Part shown: piece by piece, positions 1,691 to 54,483 of the stretch | Numbering within the stretch: the first letter of the stretch is position 1 | Layout of the letters: the number at the start of each line of letters is the position of its first letter | DNA from: an uncultured Methanomicrobiaceae archaeon | GTDB lineage: Archaea; Halobacteriota; Methanomicrobia; Methanomicrobiales; Methanoculleaceae | DNA: 64,000 bases | NCBI GenBank assembly: GCA_963826525.1 | Contig: CAWGXH010000004.1 | Location: 640,001 to 704,000, forward strand | Direction of reading: 5' to 3' | Position numbers and translations under genes: made by a program | The notes under the pieces: model-generated | Seen by the model: the letters and a program-made list of their open reading frames with translations, nothing else | What the model was told of the DNA's origin: nothing | Databases searched by the model: none

Positions 1691-2182
1691 CAATTGGTAT
1701 CGATAATACCTTGAATGATAGTCACCAGCCTTAATTTTCCACGGACAGTCTCTGCCGTGGGACACCGTACCGGTGTCCTATTTAGAGCACCCGTAAGAGG
1801 AGCACACTTCAGCTACAGTCCATAGTCTGAAGGTCGCCGGAAGAGAATGAGGCGGATCACCGTACTCCCCCGGCAAATCGGTCGGCAGCGTGACGAATGC
1901 AGCCGGGAGATCGGTATCCCGGGCTCCAGAGAGAAGAGATGCGGTCAGATGAATGAAAAGTATCCGCCCATCTAGGTCACAGACACTGTCGATGCTCCGG
2001 GAGCAGTCGGCAGGACGGAATGTAAGAATGAGACCCACCGTCTTCCAGAGGGCGGACGTATGCGTGCTCCTGAAACAGTGCACGACCCGGAGAGTAGAAA
2101 GGCGTACCTCTGCGAGGCAGCAATCACGAAATCAGATCCTCTTCACACAACGAAAACAAGTATTTCGATGAAGAGGGAAGGT

Positions 2183-2304
2183 AATAGCAGCGAATCATGC
2201 TTCCCGAGGACTCGCGTACCTCGAGTACAACATGATACGTGAGTGGGCTTCACTGCTGGGTTCGGAATGGGTCCAGGTGTTTCCCCACTGCTATGGCCGC
2301 TATT
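2183..2304 (-). rRNA. rrf: 5S ribosomal RNA (stand-alone copy)
   Basis: Reverse complement AATAGCGGCCATAGC...CCCATTCCGAACCCAGCAGTGAAG...GAGGTACGCGAGTCCTCGGGAA...GCTGCTATT; conserved CCGAAC; terminal helix; minus-strand TTATAT box ~30 nt upstream. Confidence 0.93.
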
Positions 2305-2605: not shown

Positions 2606-2681
2606 GGGCCCGTCAGCTTAGTCCGGTCAGAGCGCCCGGCTCATAACCGGGCGGTCGTGGGTTCGAATCCCTCCGGGCCCA
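2606..2681 (+). tRNA. tRNA with CAT anticodon, most likely tRNA-Ile2 (agmatidine-modified); elongator Met not excluded
   Basis: Acceptor stem GGGCCCG/CGGGCCC+A, anticodon arm CCCGG-CTCATAA-CCGGG, T-loop GTTCGAATC; one apparent extra C at 2614. Confidence 0.92.
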
Positions 2682-30057: not shown

Positions 30058-30071
30058 GCACCATGATATAC

Positions 30072-30378
30072 GGGGACTAGCCAGGGTGGCTCGGCGTCAC
30101 CTGTAACCCGAAACCGCCGTTATGCGGGAGGCGAAGTCTGAGGAAGGCTGTGGCGGCCTGCCGGAGCCGGTGCGTCCTGACGGAGAAACCTCGTCCTGTG
30201 AGGTCGGCGGACAGGCATCAATACTCCGGAGGGGGTGGCGACCTGTTGCCGCGGGAACCGGTCCAGGCCCGGAAGGGAGCAGACTTACCGTGGACGTTCG
30301 GCGCCCATGGGGTTGCGGGGTGGAGGAAGGATGCCCCGGTGAACGCAGGTACGAGCTGTCGACCGATGACGTGTCCCC
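30072..30378 (+). ncRNA. ffs: Archaeal signal recognition particle (7S) RNA
   Basis: Terminal helix GGGGAC/GTCCCC, Alu-domain CTGTAACCC, helix 8 CCAGGCCCGGAAGGGAGCAG. Confidence 0.92.
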
Positions 30379-30391
30379 AACGGCGATTTCT

Positions 30392-46715: not shown

Positions 46716-48530
46716 CTAGCGGCCGCCGACGCCGCCCCCACCGAAACCGCCGCCGCCGCCAAAGCCACCGCCGCCGAAGCCGCCACCCCCGCCGCCGCTG
46801 CTTGGCGGAGAGAAGGCGACGATCGGGACGAAGATAAACGGCATCCGCGAGTAGAGCGGCACCCCTGCATCGGGGAGGGAGACGTTCAGGTCGCGCATCG
46901 CCGCTTCCACCTTATCACCGACACCAAGAGCGGTGCCGTAGACCAGCCACTCGCCCCACTGGGAGATGTCGCCCGGAGAGTACTTCCGCATCAGAGCGAG
47001 ATCGGAGAGGAAGTAGGCGAAAGCATCCCACTGCAGTTTCTCCCGGTACCGGTCGTCTTTCCAGTGTCCAAAGAGTGTCGCCGGGAAGAGCGCCGCGATG
47101 CCGACCTGCACGCCCACGATGAAGAAGAGGACGACCGCCGGGATCAGCAGGTACGCGGCTCCCGGTGCTAAGATGAGGTTCAGCAGCGCAAGGCCGCAGG
47201 GGATAGCGCCGAGGAATATAAAAGGAAGCACCAGATCCCTGCCGTCGACGATGTAGCGCCGGGAGATGGTCGCATCGACATCCCTCCGGAGGGCCGAGAG
47301 CGTCTGCTGATAGGTCATGATCCGGTGCTGCGAACCCGGACTCCGCCGGGCGACCTCCGCGAGGTTCTTGAGCTCATCGGTATCCACCACGTGATCGTCG
47401 GCGATATTTCCGAGGAAGTTGAGCACCCGCTGCTCATACCGGTCATCCGAGCTGGTTGTGAGGAGCCGGATGATGACGCCGCCGCCCTGTTTCTCCTCCA
47501 CCCGGATAAGCTCTCGACGGTGCAGATCGAGCAGGGTTGCATAGAGTCCGTTCTCGTCGAAATCGACGGCATCGCCCTTGAAGAGGAGGTTCACCTGCCA
47601 GGGCTTGAGTGCGGGGTCGGGGACGAAGCTCAGGTATTCGGGGACGACGAAGGGCTTCTCCCGCCCATAGCGGTAATAGACGCCGAGAAGGATGAAGGGC
47701 GTCGCCAGTACCAGCGCGAATGCCCCCGCATTCAGAGCGGCGGCCACGGCATACAAAATCCCTGCCCAGCGGTTCGCATCCTCGGTCTGCTGCCGCACGT
47801 TCTCCACGAAGACCGGAAACCCGTCGATCTCTTCCAGGAACACCTTATCCGCAAGGATCTCGACGTTCAGCGGCTCATCCGCCGGGACGCTCCCGGTGAT
47901 GACGATCGAGTTTCCGACACGCTCCTGCCGGAGCGTCGGCGGGTGGAGGAAGACCTCTTCGACGAACATGGCGGGGATGGTGATCCGCACATTCTCGTAG
48001 GGGACATGCTCGTCCACGAGCCGCAGGTTCAGGTGCGCCCAGTCGTCGTCGTCCTCGATCGGGGGATGGACGACGAAACGGTACTCCGAGGGGTACAGAC
48101 CTGCCGGGAAGTAGCCGGGGTCGTAGGCACCGACTTCGTTCTCAAAGGCAAGGTCTCTGATAACCGCTACCTCAGCGGGATCGGCGCTTCCGACTATCCG
48201 TACCTGGCCGGTGTAATCCCTGGCATAGCCGGTCGTCCCTTCGGGCACGGTGAGCCCGAGAAACTCGATATGCGGGCTGTTTATCGGCTCGAATGTAAGG
48301 GGCTCATCCCAGAACCGAAAGAGCATCCTGTACTCGCCCGACTGCCGTACGTCGTAGGCGTAATCCTCGACGAGCGTGCCGTTTGCGGAGAAGGTCGCCT
48401 CGTACTCCTGGATCACGAGGTCGCCCTCGAGGAGCTGAGGGAGAGCACCTGCTCCGACGAACGCCAGCACCCCGATCGCCAGGGTTATCGCAACGAGCGC
48501 TGCGATCTGCTGCTTCTCACTGATTGCCAT
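46716..48530 (-). CDS. DUF2207 membrane protein
   Basis: ATLLDLHRR, WGEWLVYGTALGV, Gly-rich GGFGGG tail; follows lemA. Confidence 0.88.
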   Translation of the reverse strand: MAISEKQQIAALVAITLAIGVLAFVGAGALPQLLEGDLVIQEYEATFSANGTLVEDYAYDVRQSGEYRMLFRFWDEPLTFEPINSPHIEFLGLTVPEGTTGYARDYTGQVRIVGSADPAEVAVIRDLAFENEVGAYDPGYFPAGLYPSEYRFVVHPPIEDDDDWAHLNLRLVDEHVPYENVRITIPAMFVEEVFLHPPTLRQERVGNSIVITGSVPADEPLNVEILADKVFLEEIDGFPVFVENVRQQTEDANRWAGILYAVAAALNAGAFALVLATPFILLGVYYRYGREKPFVVPEYLSFVPDPALKPWQVNLLFKGDAVDFDENGLYATLLDLHRRELIRVEEKQGGGVIIRLLTTSSDDRYEQRVLNFLGNIADDHVVDTDELKNLAEVARRSPGSQHRIMTYQQTLSALRRDVDATISRRYIVDGRDLVLPFIFLGAIPCGLALLNLILAPGAAYLLIPAVVLFFIVGVQVGIAALFPATLFGHWKDDRYREKLQWDAFAYFLSDLALMRKYSPGDISQWGEWLVYGTALGVGDKVEAAMRDLNVSLPDAGVPLYSRMPFIFVPIVAFSPPSSGGGGGGFGGGGFGGGGGFGGGGVGGR

Positions 48531-48536
48531 GGCCGT

Positions 48537-49103
48537 TTAGAACTCTATCTTCGGTGGTCTCTGGATCTCCTCCTCAAACTCAAGATACTGCAGTTTCTGG
48601 AAACCCAGGACGCTTGCGATGAGGTTTGAGGGGATGGTATCGGTCATGGTATTGTACTGCTGCGCGATGTTGTTGTAGGTATACCGCTGGCGTCCGATCT
48701 CGTCTTCGATGCTCCGGACGGAGCCCATCAGGCTCTGCACCGTCTGCGAGGTCTTGAGGTCGGGGTAGTTCTCGGCGACGGCGATGAGCCGGCCGAGGAT
48801 GGACCGGGACTCCCGCTCCACCTCATTAAGGTCGCCGGGGCCTGCAGAGGCTACGCCGCTCCTCATGGCGGTTACCTTCGTGAGTGTCTCTTTCTCGAAG
48901 GCGGCGTAGCTCTTCACCGCCCCAAGAAGCTGCTCGATCATATCGAGCCGCTTCTTCATCGCAACCTTGACCTGCCCGAGGGTCGCCTCTGCAGAATTCT
49001 TGAGGGAGAAGAACCGGTTATAGATGCCCACAAACGACGCGGCAATGACGATGACGATCAGCACCACGACGACAAGAACGATCAGGGACAGAAAGTCAAC
49101 CAC
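48537..49103 (-). CDS. lemA: LemA family protein
   Basis: [33 protein letters not shown]. Confidence 0.92.
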
Positions 49104-49221: not shown

Positions 49222-50886
49222 CTACTCCCCGACCTCTTCGCCCGAGCTGACCATCGCCACGACCCTTCCGGCAGTGTCGCGGAGCAGGGTGTTGTGCCAC
49301 AGAATCTGCCGCTCGTCGCCACTCGTCGTCAGCACCGGACTTACCTCGGACGATGACGGTTCGGCGTCCCCCGCCATCAGCCGCATGAAGTTGCCGCCGA
49401 GCCGCTCCCGGAGCCGTTCGGGGACGATTGCTGCAAACCAGTCCTTCCCGACGAGCTCCGCTTCGGTATACCCGAGGATCCGGCAGCCCTTCCGGTTCAT
49501 CAGCTCGATCCGGCCGTCGGCACCGATCACGGCGATCATCACCCCCGCAACGTCGAGGTAGCTCTGCGCACGGTCCCGCTGGGCGACGAGGAGATCTTCG
49601 GCGATCTTCCTGTCGGTGACGTCTTCGGCGATACCGAGCATATACTTCGCTTCACCCCGGGAGTCAGAGATCGGCACTTTCTTGACCCGGAGGATCCGCC
49701 CGCTCCCGTTCCCGACCAGGAACGTCTTCTCCAGCAGGCCGTTATTGTCGTTACCGAGGAACAACGCCATATCTTCGGGGAAGATATCTTTCGCGCACTT
49801 TCCGGCCATATCCTCGCTCGTCCTCCCCAGGAGCTCTACGGCGGCGTGATTGAAGAAGACGAACGTCTGCCCTTTGAGTTCTTTGACGAAGACCATACTC
49901 GGGATATTGTTCACGACGGAGTACAGGAACGACTTCCACTTCTTCACCTTCCGGATAGCATGCTGCCGTTCGGTGATATCACGGCAGACGAATCGGTACC
50001 CGGTGAATTCACCGATGATGTCGAAGACCGCCGTTCCGTTGGCCTCGAGGAACACCGGGCGGCCGTCTTTATGGAGCATGGTGCACTCAAAGAGAGTCGA
50101 CGACGGCGTTTCGGCGTTCAGCGACCGGAGCCAGTCCCGTGCCCGTTCCGCGTCACCGGGCGCCATGAAGTCGCATGGGGTCTTCCCGACCATCTCCTCG
50201 GGCGCGTAGCCGAGAAGGTCTCTGCTCTTCGGACTGACGTAGGTGAAGGTGCCGCTCTCGCTCAGGTTCCAGATGAGATCGTTGATGTTCTCGACGAGGG
50301 CGCGAAACATATTCTCGCTCTCCCGGAGCGCCTCCTCTGCCCGTTTCTTCTCGGAGATATCCTCAAGAATGATCGTCACCCCGGGCGAGCCGTCGTTGAA
50401 GACGGTCGGGAGGATCTTGATCCTGAAGAAGAAGATTTCGGTCTGCCGGACAAACCGGAGCTCTTCGACAAAATCCGCCCCATTGAGCGCCTGCGCGATC
50501 CGTGTCCTGATCAGAGGGTGATCGAAGGCGGCAAGCGGGGATCGAGCCATTTCTTTCCCAAGGAGGTCGTCACGGTCAGCACCGGCGAACGAGCAGGCCG
50601 CATCGTTCGCCTGCATTATCCGGGTCTCCCGGTCGATTACCACGACGATATCGGACGAGAAGTTCAGCATGGCAGAGATGGGCACCCGTTGCGAGAGGAA
50701 GAAAACTTTTGCCTTCCCGTAGGTTCTCATCTCCGCCTGACCCGAGATGAGCAGGACGTCAAGGTAGCGGGATACGGTATTTCTATTGACACCAACGGCT
50801 GCGGCGATGTCGGTCACAGACATTCCTCGCGGATTCGCCTTCAGCAGACTGATAATCGGAGGGAGTTCGTCAGAATACGGATCCAT
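49222..50886 (-). CDS. wHTH plus four-PAS one-component regulator
   Basis: GMSVTDIAAAVGVNRNTVSRYL followed by four PAS/PAC modules; no kinase domain. Confidence 0.85.
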   Translation of the reverse strand: MDPYSDELPPIISLLKANPRGMSVTDIAAAVGVNRNTVSRYLDVLLISGQAEMRTYGKAKVFFLSQRVPISAMLNFSSDIVVVIDRETRIMQANDAACSFAGADRDDLLGKEMARSPLAAFDHPLIRTRIAQALNGADFVEELRFVRQTEIFFFRIKILPTVFNDGSPGVTIILEDISEKKRAEEALRESENMFRALVENINDLIWNLSESGTFTYVSPKSRDLLGYAPEEMVGKTPCDFMAPGDAERARDWLRSLNAETPSSTLFECTMLHKDGRPVFLEANGTAVFDIIGEFTGYRFVCRDITERQHAIRKVKKWKSFLYSVVNNIPSMVFVKELKGQTFVFFNHAAVELLGRTSEDMAGKCAKDIFPEDMALFLGNDNNGLLEKTFLVGNGSGRILRVKKVPISDSRGEAKYMLGIAEDVTDRKIAEDLLVAQRDRAQSYLDVAGVMIAVIGADGRIELMNRKGCRILGYTEAELVGKDWFAAIVPERLRERLGGNFMRLMAGDAEPSSSEVSPVLTTSGDERQILWHNTLLRDTAGRVVAMVSSGEEVGE

Positions 50887-50990
50887 GCCGTACAATCATT
50901 CGTCGCAATGAGTATTAGTGCTTTGTCTGTTGCCATACCATAGCGAGAGCCATAACGAATGCACCAATGCCCCCGTTAATGCAATGCAAT

Positions 50991-51008
50991 AAAGGAAATG
51001 TTTATACG
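50991..51008 (+). promoter_or_regulatory. BRE plus TATA box (AAAGGAAATG-TTTATACG)
   Basis: Consensus archaeal promoter with no credible CDS in the next ~500 nt. Confidence 0.6.
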
Positions 51009-51026
51009 TGTATCGCACCAACACTT

Positions 51027-51345
51027 GATCCCCAGAGTCAGAAGAGATACGGGGAATCTCTCCGGACGTGCGGCATGGCCGCACGTCTGATCTGGCATGT
51101 TCGGCCGGAGTCGGCACAACTCCGGTCAAACGGACACCATTTACCACCAAACGTCAGGGTTCCCGTATCATCCCCCCGGAACCGAAGGGGGGCAGAGCGG
51201 CCCCACACCTCTCTACCGAAACAAAGCATCCGAAGCACGGAAGGGCGGGCGGCACAACCGCCCTCTTCGTAGCGTCCCATGGTTATCACACACCTCATCA
51301 CCCCCACCCTCGGAGAAAACACATACCGGCGATACGCCGGCAATC
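51027..51345 (+). ncRNA. Candidate structured non-coding RNA
   Basis: Closing stem 51046-55/51160-69, five hairpins, two with a CGGCACAA loop, downstream of a TATA box. Confidence 0.5.
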
Positions 51346-51528
51346 CATCTTTTCACTATTCACCCGGGGAGTTACGGAAGGACGACAGCGCCTCGCCCTC
51401 GCATCCTCAGTACCATAGATATATAGTTACCGAAACCAAACGACGGCATCTACCGGACTTTTTAGATATCTTTATACCATGAAAGCCGTAAGTCCTATTT
51501 GTTGACCCCGCCGTCAAAGGGATTTTCT

Positions 51529-54483
51529 ATGATTTCGGGTACTGCATGTTGACGACGAGCCCGCACTCCTCGATATTACCAGCCTGTTCCTCGAGAGAAA
51601 TAAAGAAATTACCGTTGAGGTAAGCACATCTGCCGAAGAGGCGCTTCTGATGCTCACGACCCGTCGGTTCGACGTCATCGTATCCGATTACGAGATGCCC
51701 CTGATGAACGGGATAGAGTTTTTAAAGCACCTCAAAGCGCAGGGCAACGATACCCCGTTCATCATCTTCACCGGAAGAGGGCGAGAGCATGTCATCATCG
51801 AGGCACTCAACAACGGCGCGTCGTTCTACCTCCAGAAAGGCGGCGACCCGAAGTCCCAGTTTGCCGAACTGAGACACATGATCGAGCAGGCCGTCGAACG
51901 GAAGAGAATGGATGAGGCTCTCAAGGCAAGTGAGGAGCGCTACCGCGCCGTCGTCGAGAGCCAGACGGAGCTTATCTGCAGGTTCCACCCCGATGGAACC
52001 CTCGTCTTTGCGAACGATGCCTTCTGCCGCTACTACGGCAGGGAGAAATGCACCGGGTTCATCGGCAAACGTTTCTTCCCGAAGATCCCCGCCGAAGAGC
52101 GGGATCTAATCAGGAGAGCACTTCTCGTCCCTGACGCTCGATTCTCCGGTCGGGACTGTCGAGCACCGCGTTCTCATGCCGGACGGCACGACCCGGTGGC
52201 AGCAGTGGAGCGACCGGGCGCTCTTTGACGAGGAGAAGCAGGTCACCGAGTTTCAGTCGGTAGGAAGAGACATAACTGACCGGAAACTCGCTGAAGAAGC
52301 CCTGAAAGAGTCGGAGACGAAGTTCAAGGTTCTCGCCGAAAAATCGCTCGTCGGCGTGTATATCGTCAGGAACGGGGTCTTTACCTATGTCAACCCCCGG
52401 TTTGCCCGTATCTTCGGCTACCGGGTCGACGAGATGGTCGGGAGGATCGGGTTTGACGACCTCACCCTCCCGGACGATCTCCCCATCGTTCAGGAGAGGA
52501 TCCGGAAGATCTCCGGCGAGCAGGACTATCCGCACTTCGAGTTCCGCGGTGTCCGGAGAGACGGCGAGGTGATCACCCTCGAGGTCTACGGGTCGGAAAC
52601 CGCTATCCAGGGTACCCGGGGAATCATCGGGACGCTCCTTGACATCTCCGACCGGAAGAAGATGGAAGTCTCCCTAAAAGAGAAGGTCAACTACGTCCAG
52701 GCGCTGATGGACACCATTCCGGCGCCGGTCTTCTACCGCGACACCGATGGGATCTACCAGGACTGCAACCGCGCCTTCGAGGAACTCGTCGGTCTTCCGA
52801 AGGAGGAGATCATCGGAAAGACAATCCACTACTTCTTCCCGAAGGAGTACGCCGACATCTACAAAGAGAAGGACAACCTCATCATCAGCCATCCGCATAT
52901 CCAGCGCTACGAGTTCGCCATCACCGACGCCCGGGGAGCCGTTCACGACGTTCTCTTCTCAAAGACCGCTCTCTTCAGGGCGGACGGGGGCGTCGGCGGG
53001 ATCGTCGGTGCGATCCTCGACATCTCGGACCGGAAGAAGATGGAGGTCTCCCTAAAAGAGAAGGTCAACTACGTCCAGGCGCTGATGGATACCATTCCGG
53101 CCCCCGTCTTCTACCGCGACACCGATGGGATCTACCAGGACTGCAACCGCGCCTTCGAGGAACTCGTCAGGTCTTCCGAAGGCAGAGATCATCGGAAAGA
53201 CTATCTGGGACTTCTTCCCGAAGTTCTACGCCGACCACTACAAGCACAAGGATGACCTGATCATCGAGCACCCCCACGTCCAGCGCTACGAGTTCGAGCT
53301 CCAGAATACCCGGGGCGAGAAGTCCGATGTTCTCTTCTCAAAGACCGCCCTCTTCCGGGCTGACGGGAGCATCGCCGGGATCGTCGGCGTCATCATGGAC
53401 ATCTCCGACCGGAAGAAGATGGAGAAGGCGCTCCGGGAGAGCGAAGAGAAATTCCGGACGCTGGCCGACTTCACCTACGACTGGGAGTCCTGGCTCGGGC
53501 CTGAAGGGAACTACCTCTATGTCTCGCCTTCGTGCGAACGGATCACCGGGTATGCCGCAGAAGAGTTCCTCGCCGATCCCCACCTGACCGAGAAGATCAC
53601 CTATCCCGGAGATCAGGCGATGGTGGCACACCACTACAACGAGGTCTGGAAGACGAGCGACAGAGTGCACCATCTGGACTTCCGGATCGTCACGCCCGGC
53701 GGGGAGACCCGCTGGATCAGCCACTACTGCCAGCCGGTCTACCACGACGACGGGAGCTGGTTCGGCCGCCGTGAGAACAAGCGGGACATCACTCACCGGA
53801 AGGTCGTGGAAGAGGCGCTCCAGCAGGCAAACCGGAAGTTAAACCTCCTCTCCAGCGTCACCCGCCACGACGTCCTCAACCAGCTCACCGCGCTTGCAGG
53901 CTACCTCGAGCTTGCGAAGGATTACGTCGCCGATCCGTTCTTCTTCGAGATGATCGAGAAGGCAGATCTTGCCACCGACACCATCAGGCACCAGATCACC
54001 TTCACCAAGGACTACCAGGATATCGGTGTCCACACCCCGACGTGGCAGAACCTGAACGCGGTGGTGGAGAAGACGGCAGCCATCCGGAGCGCCGGGGCCG
54101 ACGTCTCGATAGCGGCGGATTTCGCCTCTTTAGAGATCTACGCCGACCCGCTCCTCCAGAAGGTCTTCTCAAATCTCCTCGATAACACAGCGAGGCACAG
54201 CGGCAGCGTCAGCAGAATTACATTCTCGTCGTCGGAGTCGGACGAAGGCTTAACGCTTGTCTGCGAAGACGACGGGGTCGGGATTCCCGAGACGGAGAAA
54301 GGCCGGATATTCGAGCGGGGCAGGGGACGAAACACCGGATACGGCCTCTTCCTTGCGCAGGAGATCCTCTCCATCACCGGGCTTTCCATCAGGGAGACCG
54401 GAGTGCCGGGAAGCGGAGCCCGGTTCGAGATCCAGGTCCCACGGGGTGCATACCGGTTCACTGCCGGAAACAGTACCGGCTGA
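51529..54483 (+). CDS. Hybrid sensor kinase: receiver, multiple PAS, histidine kinase (frameshifts near 51538, 52116, 53169)
   Basis: (V)LHVDDE, IVSDYEMP, PAS repeats, TRHDVLNQL H-box, NLLDN, DDGVG, GYGLF. Confidence 0.88.
52641..53397 (+). repeat. 378-bp tandem duplication of one PAS/PAC module
   Basis: GACATCTCSGACCGGAAGAAGATGGA at 52641, 53019 and 53398; first ~150 nt of the two copies nearly identical. Confidence 0.9.

Follow-up and report, generated by a model that had tools for sequence, protein, structure and literature searches.

A conserved family of structured RNAs in Methanoculleus and sister genera, encoded beside a PAS-domain regulator gene

The locus and the extent of the RNA gene

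The window analysed here is the whole of a 64,000-nucleotide (nt) stretch of DNA from an uncultured Methanomicrobiaceae archaeon (assembly GCA_963826525.1, contig CAWGXH010000004.1, positions 640,001 to 704,000). A 633-base gap (50896–51528) separates a minus-strand regulator gene from a plus-strand receiver-PAS-HATPase gene, and within this gap we place a gene of about 328 nt (51026–51353, plus strand) for a structured RNA; it belongs to a conserved family of structured RNAs, not described before, that occurs in Methanoculleus and sister genera. A first-pass annotation had flagged the region as a candidate new structured RNA, and this stands: its stems covary in two genera, a diverged copy is found in a third, the region is single copy, and it matches nothing in Rfam. 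Every string the annotation quoted lies where it was placed (TTTATA at 51001–51006, C6/G6 at 51172–51192 and CTTTTC at 51349–51354 among them). In what follows, G000 is the window genome and g1 its genus, to which G001 and G002 also belong; g6 is Methanoculleus, and g3 a third genus represented by G004.

The regulator gene (49222–50895, minus strand) is divergent from the RNA, and encodes a winged helix-turn-helix (wHTH) together with four PAS domains; Pfam places HTH_IclR/HTH_24 at residues 14–48 and PAS_4 (1.2e-52) over four stretches. Protein identity to its orthologues stands at 91% in G001, 76% in G002, 62–67% in Methanoculleus and 61% in g3. Both could be located in 29 genomes, and in every one of them a distance of 114–139 nt separates the RNA from the 5′ terminus of the wHTH-PAS gene, the two being on opposite strands.

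Moving from the regulator gene towards the RNA, we see a tandem motif, ATGCAATGCAAT (50979–50990, plus strand), positioned just 5′ of a B recognition element and TATA box (BRE/TATA; 50993–51008, plus strand, with TTTATA at 51001–51006) that we take as the promoter of the RNA gene. The regulator may use this motif as its operator; most Methanoculleus loci have ATGCAAGGCAAT instead and g3 has ATGCCAGGCAAT, the distance of the motif from the TATA box being unchanged, and the alignment shows an A/T-rich box in one fixed set of columns at each of the 29 loci. Invariant sequence sets in at 51026, some 20 nt 3′ of the TATA box, and it is this onset, taken together with the promoter distance, that places the 5′ end of the gene; transcription would start about 20 nt after the BRE/TATA and stop at a hairpin with a run of T behind it, the features from which the 3′ end is placed.

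The hairpin in question, CCGGCG-AUA-CGCCGG followed by CUUUUC (51326–51354, plus strand), is a putative terminator; the CCGGCG/CGCCGG pair at 51326–51340, already picked out by the first-pass annotation, forms its stem. It covaries within g1, with UGUCCGGCA-CUA-UGCCGGCA in G001 and CCGCCGCACCC-GACG-GGGUGCGGCAGG in G002, and a T-run after each. For Methanoculleus, a run of T6–T8 directly follows ..CAAUACACCCUC, the additional 3′ hairpin being a feature of g1. A T-run closes the element in all three genera, and the RNA appears to possess both a promoter and a terminator of its own, as a stand-alone small RNA (sRNA) would. Judged from sequence, the predicted transcript measures about 290–330 nt across the members of the family, starting at the (A)UGAUCCCC block and stopping at the T-run.

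Conservation, structure and covariation

Blastn with the intergenic region, a check that the first-pass annotation had proposed, recovers it from 31 of 61 related genomes: both further genomes of g1 and 28 of 30 from Methanoculleus, with none from the 28 of other genera. The similarity is concentrated in two blocks (50978–51064 and 51243–51294), and a MAFFT alignment of 29 loci presents the same order of elements throughout; the tandem motif, the BRE/TATA, an invariant UGAUCCCCAGAGUC, a series of hairpins, the invariant CACACCUCUCU, GGCACAACCG and UGGUUAUCACACACC, and then the 3′ end.

As a single sequence, the plus strand of 51027–51345 folds to −120.8 kcal/mol, against −102.3 ± 5.0 for dinucleotide-shuffled versions (z −3.73; none of 100 shuffles as good). 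The minus strand folds almost equally well (z −3.34), so that the fold alone cannot pick the strand.

The structure opens with the invariant 5′ block UGAUCCCCAGAGUC (51026–51039, plus strand; conservation 0.99), of which CCCCAGAGUC is retained in g3. Part of this block, CCAGA (51032–51036), may pair with UCUGG (51091–51095) to form P1; the equivalent pairing in Methanoculleus, CCCAG/CUGGG, becomes CCCGG/CCGGG in two sequences. Next is P2 (51043–51061, plus strand), an AGAGAU-ACGGGGA-AUCUCU hairpin with a GGGGAA loop that covaries in Methanoculleus, where its outer helix is GUCG/CGAC in most sequences and CAGU/ACUG in one clade, accompanied by paired GC insertions and by changes from A-U to G-U and G-C. 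Four lineages have deleted the GGGG of the loop and retained the hairpin. Minimum free energy folds of g1 and g3 propose a different 5′ hairpin, GAUCCCC/GGGGAAUC, which excludes P2 and which is impossible in those four lineages, all of which still have P2; we retain it as a possible alternative fold. A further helix, drawn by the first-pass annotation as a 10-bp enclosing stem between GATACGGGGA (51046–51055) and TTCCCGTATC (51160–51169), proved to be peculiar to the window: G001 reads CTCCCGCACC, with three uncompensated mismatches, and Methanoculleus has no counterpart.

P3 (51065–51087, plus strand; GACGTGCGGC/GCCGCACGTC, or GACGUGCGGC-AUG-GCCGCACGUC as RNA) is the perfect hairpin reported at first pass, and relatives have a hairpin of other sequence at the same place; GACAUGUGG-CAUGA-CCACAUGUC in G001, CCGCGG-CAUGA-CCGCGG in G002, and CCGGACCGC...GCGGGCCGG in Methanoculleus, there with GGCAC in the loop. 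Two-sided changes are seen in six of its eight pairs (helix 4 of the alignment). P5 (51103–51127, plus strand) is likewise present as reported, GGCCGGAGT-CGGCACA-ACTCCGGTC, or GGCCGGAGU-CGGCACA-ACUCCGGUC as RNA, and is drawn from single-sequence folds. Its place is taken by UACGACGGAUUGG-AACGGCACG-CCGUCCGUCGUA in G002 and by GGUGAA-CGGAACA-UUCACC in Methanoculleus; the equivalence between genera is one of position, the alignment here not being clean. P6 (51172–51192, plus strand; CCCCCC-GGAACCGAA-GGGGGG) covaries, with two-sided changes in four of four pairs (helix 10): ACCUCCC-GAAUCA-GGGGGGU in G001, and UGCACCGGG-AGA-CCCGGUGCA, GUACCAG/CUGGUAC and similar stems in Methanoculleus.

Beyond P6 lies the invariant tract CACACCUCUCU (51204–51214, plus strand), which we consider a candidate seed; its conservation is 0.99 and its mean unpaired probability 0.65 over 49 sequences. 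The long hairpin P7 (51237–51270, plus strand; ACGGAAGGGCGG-GCGGCACAA-CCGCCCUCUUCGU) contains the AGGGCGG-GCGGCACAA-CCGCCCT stem that the first pass had seen at 51242–51264, and presents an invariant apical loop, GGCACAA. Its element GGCACAACCG has a conservation of 0.99 and an unpaired probability of 0.62, set upon stems that differ from one lineage to another (GGGAGGGCGGU/GCCGCCCUCCC in G001, CGGGGAAGGGCGG/CCGUCCUUCCCCG in G002, CCGGAGCGG/CCGCUCCGG in Methanoculleus); P7 covaries, and the three helices that make it up (12–14) show two-sided changes in 14 pairs. A second invariant tract, CAUGGUUAUCACACACC (51278–51294, plus strand), served as the anchor of our collection scans. Within it, UGGUUAUCACACACC reaches a conservation of 1.00 with an unpaired probability of 0.60, and in g1 the tract is followed by a second CACCUC.

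The consensus that RNAalifold returned for a mixed MAFFT alignment of g1 and g6 was poor (covariation term −0.71), and was replaced by a structure derived by hand on 26 Methanoculleus sequences (alignment A2), comprising P1–P7 and a doubtful closing helix. From A2 we built a covariance model, R1, of 294 positions and 69 pairs. Fitting 65 sequences from GTDB species genomes and metagenomes to R1 gave alignment A4, in which 50 sequences are distinct. In A2, hence within Methanoculleus alone, 93.0% of cells pair, as compared with 32–44% when the 3′ partner is slid, and 17 pairs show two-sided changes as compared with 4–11; none of 500 shuffles reaches any of these measures. For the 50 distinct sequences, the corresponding values are 92.8% of cells against 31–46%, two-sided changes in 31 of the 69 pairs against 7–19, and a covariation score of 0.143 against at most 0.047 in the controls, again with 0 of 500 shuffles reaching any measure. 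Support that does not depend on the fitted alignment comes from single folds of G000, G001, G002 and Methanoculleus, in which P3, P6, P7 and the 3′ hairpin recur in place with different stems; the helix swap and the paired insertions of P2 add to it.

The strand is indicated by the promoter and T-run, both on the plus strand, and by the substitutions tolerated within stems, which include 168 G-U/U-G cells versus 93 A-C/C-A cells. As to expression, two metatranscriptome runs from two studies, each with a small share of matching sequence, yielded one short contig apiece (164 and 195 nt), both wholly inside the RNA (51077–51240 and 51065–51224); the second continues into sequence identical to the RNA of G001. 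Neither run gave an RNA-library contig on the flanking genes, where uncovered flanks, like uncovered parts of the RNA, prove nothing. The contigs show neither ends nor strand, and offer no more than a faint hint that relatives make an abundant small transcript.

Several observations pull the other way. A4 was fitted to the structure of the model, itself derived from one member sequence, and both circumstances favour the pairing counts; P7b pairs in only 67% of cells; the closing helix P0 (UGAU/AUCA) has no covariation, is broken in two sequences and was set aside; and the g1 RNAs align poorly to Methanoculleus and R1 over their middle part. The metatranscriptome contigs, for their part, derive from relatives (about 90% identical to the window) at depths of 2.5 and 4.2, and could represent carried-over DNA. 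Taking all of this together, we consider it highly probable that 51026–51353 on the plus strand is a real and independent gene for a structured RNA.

Distribution, coding potential and known families

Among 151 Methanomicrobiales genomes, R1 finds 29 matches, one per genome: all 27 of Methanoculleus, G001 and the window genome, where its sole match spans 51023–51314 (52.5 bits, E 1.6e-13). The other 122, drawn from the remaining sampled genera and families of the order, gave none. When 185,579 species, each represented by one genome, were scanned with a two-block pattern, GGCACANCCG-N15-45-TGGTTATNACACACC, 32 loci emerged, 20 of them titled Methanoculleus and 12 bearing the higher-rank titles of metagenome-assembled genomes (Methanomicrobiales, Methanomicrobiaceae or Methanobacteriota archaeon); the pattern also occurs in 26 metagenome stretches, and all 65 sources searched match R1.

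The diverged copy in g3 (G004, 81% complete; locus L127, G004:C106, about 1921–2212) is found directly downstream of the 61%-identical orthologue of the regulator. On its promoter side are the motif ATGCCAGGCAATAAGG and an TTTTTATAA box, then AGUCCCCAGAGUC; its interior holds GGGGAAG, four GGCAC, ACACCUCUC, CACACACC and a T6 run, and folding predicts CACACACC to be base-paired within a long hairpin. Since R1 sees only fragments of this copy (8–11 bits), its homology rests on synteny and common motifs. A blastn search of 55 family genomes with the g3 RNA as query brought up no additional relatives. The RNA itself is restricted to Methanoculleus and the sister genera closest to it.

Multi-copy elements were another concern raised at first pass, in the form of a miniature inverted-repeat transposable element. 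The region occurs just once in its genome and is thus not such an element: apart from the self-match, nothing there scores better than E 0.48, and each of the 29 genomes contains one R1 match.

Nor does the RNA belong to a described family. Rfam, searched with the region at E up to 10, gives two rows at chance level, the better being rnk_pseudo on the minus strand (16.5 bits where the threshold is 55, E 6.5), and the homologous loci of g6, g3 and g1 give nothing that overlaps the RNA at E up to 1. Across the whole window, Rfam 15 at gathering level reports only signal recognition particle (SRP) RNA, 5S rRNA and one tRNA, none at the RNA gene; these lie at 30070–30380 (plus strand), 2182–2304 (minus strand) and 2606–2681 (plus strand), respectively. 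The earlier view that the element resembles neither SRP nor RNase P RNA is borne out by the presence of both elsewhere in the genome, above their cut-offs (RF01857 at window 30070–30380, 183.7 bits; RF00373 on contig C5, 213.2 bits). Among the listings and abstract openings that a full-text literature search returned, we found no report of a small or regulatory RNA from Methanoculleus.

Such an RNA could in principle serve a ‘housekeeping’ or ribonucleoprotein-type role, structural, catalytic or guiding rather than regulatory. It is a single-copy core gene in 27 of 27 Methanoculleus genomes, has a size typical of SRP or RNase P RNA, and combines a multi-helix architecture with several invariant tracts of 10–15 nt. 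Yet the family is limited to two or three genera, with 0 of the 122 other Methanomicrobiales genomes represented, and is tightly linked to a sensor-regulator gene; the SRP and RNase P RNAs are located elsewhere, and no ribozyme or Rfam family matches. We regard this role as improbable.

Could the region instead be no RNA gene at all, holding a leaderless gene for a small protein that starts from an (A/T/G)TG at 51025, or a stretch of DNA carrying GGCAC operators? Of 49 full-length sequences, 46 have an NTG where the transcript is predicted to start (three have none), many sequences contain long stop-free frames, and the GGCAC repeats could be DNA sites. But the peptides that begin at this NTG are alike only in MIPRV, after which they run in different frames to lengths of 17–106 amino acids (aa), and g3 has ATA at the NTG position. 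The invariant block contains indels, of 4 nt between g1 and Methanoculleus and of 10 nt (a deletion) in two lineages; gap runs are a multiple of three in only 290 of 1595 cases, there being no conserved frame; the invariant runs lack third-position variation; and compensatory changes in stems are not expected of DNA sites. We therefore give this alternative very little credence, and by sequence the region is not coding. The statement in the first-pass annotation that no credible open reading frame (ORF) exists here stands in so far as no frame is conserved, and needs amending in that stop-free frames of 84–116 aa do exist.

A third alternative, suggested at first pass, would make the element a regulatory leader of the downstream kinase gene; more generally, a cis-acting leader or riboswitch governing read-through into whichever signalling gene follows (the kinase here, STAS-SpoIIE in Methanoculleus). 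The RNA does lie on the same strand as, and 5′ of, signalling genes in the window and at the Methanoculleus locus L038, and its terminator-like 3′ element could attenuate. The gene that follows differs between genera, so the RNA is not the leader of the kinase: in g1 it is receiver-PAS-HATPase; at L038, and in many Methanoculleus genomes, a STAS protein, followed at L038 by a 5TMR-LYT/SpoIIE phosphatase; and at L041, among others, a reverse-strand gene (at L041 resembling a nucleoside deoxyribosyltransferase). Several Methanoculleus loci keep the RNA where deletion has reduced the STAS gene to its first dozen or so codons. In the window, moreover, the RNA closes with its hairpin and T-run (51326–51354), and a second TTTATA box (51471–51476, plus strand), conserved in G001 and G002, lies 3′ of that T-run and about 55 nt 5′ of the ATG at 51529, where it would serve as the promoter of the kinase gene itself. 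We consider a leader function most improbable.

The STAS and 5TMR-LYT/SpoIIE genes, found 3′ of the RNA in many Methanoculleus genomes, form a pair of the partner-switching type (at L038, 1857–3288, plus strand). The receiver-PAS-HATPase gene of the window (51529–54483, plus strand) is itself split into three overlapping frames (51533–52228, 52176–53255 and 53125–54483), its ATG at 51529 reaching a TGA at 51550. One G of a GGG run (51537–51539) is missing both in G001, where the ORF is continuous over at least 499 aa, and in a DNA contig from a relative; the broken gene is either a pseudogene or the product of indel errors in the assembly (87.6% complete, 5.3% contamination).

Possible modes of action and comparison with known RNAs

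Our best guess ranks a base-pairing sRNA first and a protein-binding RNA next. In the model we favour, the wHTH sensor regulator with its four PAS domains probably controls the RNA via the ATGCA(A/C)(T/G)GCAAT motif beside the promoter, a candidate operator, and the RNA would act in trans, its mostly unpaired CACACCUCUCU pairing with ribosome-binding sites of GAGAGGUG type and thereby blocking or altering translation; extra contacts or specificity may come from the GGCAC(A) loops together with the UGGUUAUCACACACC tract. The 16S rRNA of the window genome ends in ...GGAUCACCUCCU, which makes CACACCUCUCU a ‘look-alike’ of the anti-Shine-Dalgarno sequence. The ACACCUCUC portion of the seed tract is retained in g3, and the complement of CACACCUCUCU, AGAGAGGTG, is found at ribosome-binding distance 5′ of several long ORFs in the window genome.

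Target scans and simpler considerations tell against this model. RNAduplex paired four segments with 30,012 crudely defined start regions and returned no outlier tied to a real gene; a scan of the genome for 9-mer complements gave mostly chance matches or generic Shine-Dalgarno sites, not above background; and the complement of a 15-mer seed, allowing two mismatches or fewer, is about as frequent in 31 Methanoculleus genomes as its reversed control. Complementarity to Shine-Dalgarno sites is expected of any C-rich tract, and the repeated GGCAC fits a protein-binding RNA at least as well. Saying this, the whole statement, that of an independent new structured RNA gene controlled by the regulator and acting in trans by base pairing, falls in our judgement just short of an even chance; base pairing as a mechanism, taken by itself, is put forward tentatively, at somewhat less than even.

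In the course of these scans we observed a site, AGAGAGGTGTG, perfectly complementary to the invariant tract over 11 bases and immediately preceding the GTG with which a membrane-protein ORF (VVWFREVEYMRGFAALAV...) starts. It was inspected in three Methanoculleus genomes (L132/G013, L134/G028 and L136/G011), where it is 3′ of a TATA-like box, and the 15-mer site recurs in 5 of the 31 Methanoculleus genomes searched. It may be a candidate target, or simply conserved gene sequence.

The protein-binding alternative supposes that GGCAC(A), presented in loops and junctions, titrates an unknown archaeal RNA-binding protein, the RNA acting as a ‘sponge’ or scaffold by a logic akin to that of CsrB. 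As the first-pass annotation had observed, two stems of the window RNA carry the same loop, CGGCACA (51112–51118 and 51250–51256), and GGCA occurs six times (51072, 51094, 51113, 51191, 51251 and 51339) where 2.2 are expected (p about 0.008, 1000 dinucleotide shuffles); two of these are GGCAC, the others including GGCAU and GGCAG. GGCAC is present four to five times in 34 of the 50 distinct sequences (range 2–7), with three copies in hairpin loops in most members, and four times in g3. Five of the Methanoculleus sites are at least 90% conserved (P3 loop, P4 loop, the junction before CACCUCUCU, P7 base and P7 loop), and the copy in the P3 loop has an unpaired probability of 0.82. The enrichment within single sequences is, however, modest (p 0.02–0.24 for GGCAC in six sequences), only the copy in the P7 loop is invariant across genera, and repeated loop motifs are found in base-pairing sRNAs too. 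CsrA (PF02599) was not found in the genome of the window (87.6% complete) or in five others (99% complete), control genomes being positive. We judge a protein-binding sponge or scaffold unlikely, if still a serious contender.

Pressed further, the argument would make this the first protein-titrating or decoy RNA in Archaea; a core single-copy gene switched by a PAS regulator. In one version, four to five GGCAC(A) sites would soak up an RNA-binding protein. In the other, the CACCUC tracts, with a loop of sequence GGGGAAUCU that matches the helix-45 loop region exactly, would mimic the 3′ end of 16S rRNA, and competition for Shine-Dalgarno sites, or for factors of the 16S 3′ end, would reset translation initiation globally. 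Mimicry of helix 45 was set aside as a candidate: the 9-mer GGGGAAUCU is common to both RNAs, but the loop is lost in some species, which weakens the idea. In either version, we hold the decoy proposal to be unlikely.

Returning to the base-pairing sRNA, some comparisons with known systems are instructive. Methanosarcina mazei sRNA41 exemplifies sRNAs that pair with ribosome-binding sites via a C-rich, anti-Shine-Dalgarno-like tract; the RNA described here resembles this type in that one of its invariant tracts is mostly unpaired, contains CACCUC and is complementary to GAGGUG Shine-Dalgarno cores. It differs in that a far larger RNA of many helices surrounds the tract, and in that pairing to mRNA is a prediction. 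A second sRNA of the same organism, sRNA154, is genus-restricted and acts through conserved loops. Its promoter carries an NrpRI operator, GGTA-N6-TACC, and it is transcribed under nitrogen fixation (PMC3177094). To that extent the two are alike, both being stand-alone intergenic genes of methanogens, here with a conserved motif by the BRE/TATA and an adjacent sensor-regulator gene. The Methanoculleus RNA is larger (about 290–330 nt) and is linked to a wHTH-PAS regulator rather than NrpR, and we claim no kinship of sequence or structure.

With the CsrB and RsmZ sRNAs our family has in common a length of a few hundred nt and the display of one short motif on several hairpins; here, however, the motif is GGCAC(A)/GGCAU as opposed to A(N)GGA, the host is archaeal, no CsrA was found in six genomes, and no Csr/Rsm family of Rfam matches. 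Archaeal SRP and RNase P RNAs resemble the new RNA in size, in being single copy and in their multi-helix structure, but the new RNA matches neither model and both of their genes are elsewhere in the genome.

Methanoculleus is among the main hydrogen-using methanogens of biogas reactors and sediments. That the RNA is single copy in every member of the genus examined, contains invariant tracts of 10–15 bases and adjoins a PAS regulator suggests that it occupies an important control point. Its predicted promoter, candidate operator, loops and candidate seed offer an entry point into post-transcriptional control in the Methanomicrobiales, and an alignment of 50 sequences together with a working covariance model is in place for a candidate new Rfam family.

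Two observations concern the surroundings of the regulator gene. Paralogous wHTH-PAS genes, 28–35% identical to the regulator, are clustered at G000:C4:708698–713847, a few kb beyond the end of the window, and behind the regulator gene itself are genes for LemA and a DUF2207 membrane protein (window 46716–49103, minus strand).

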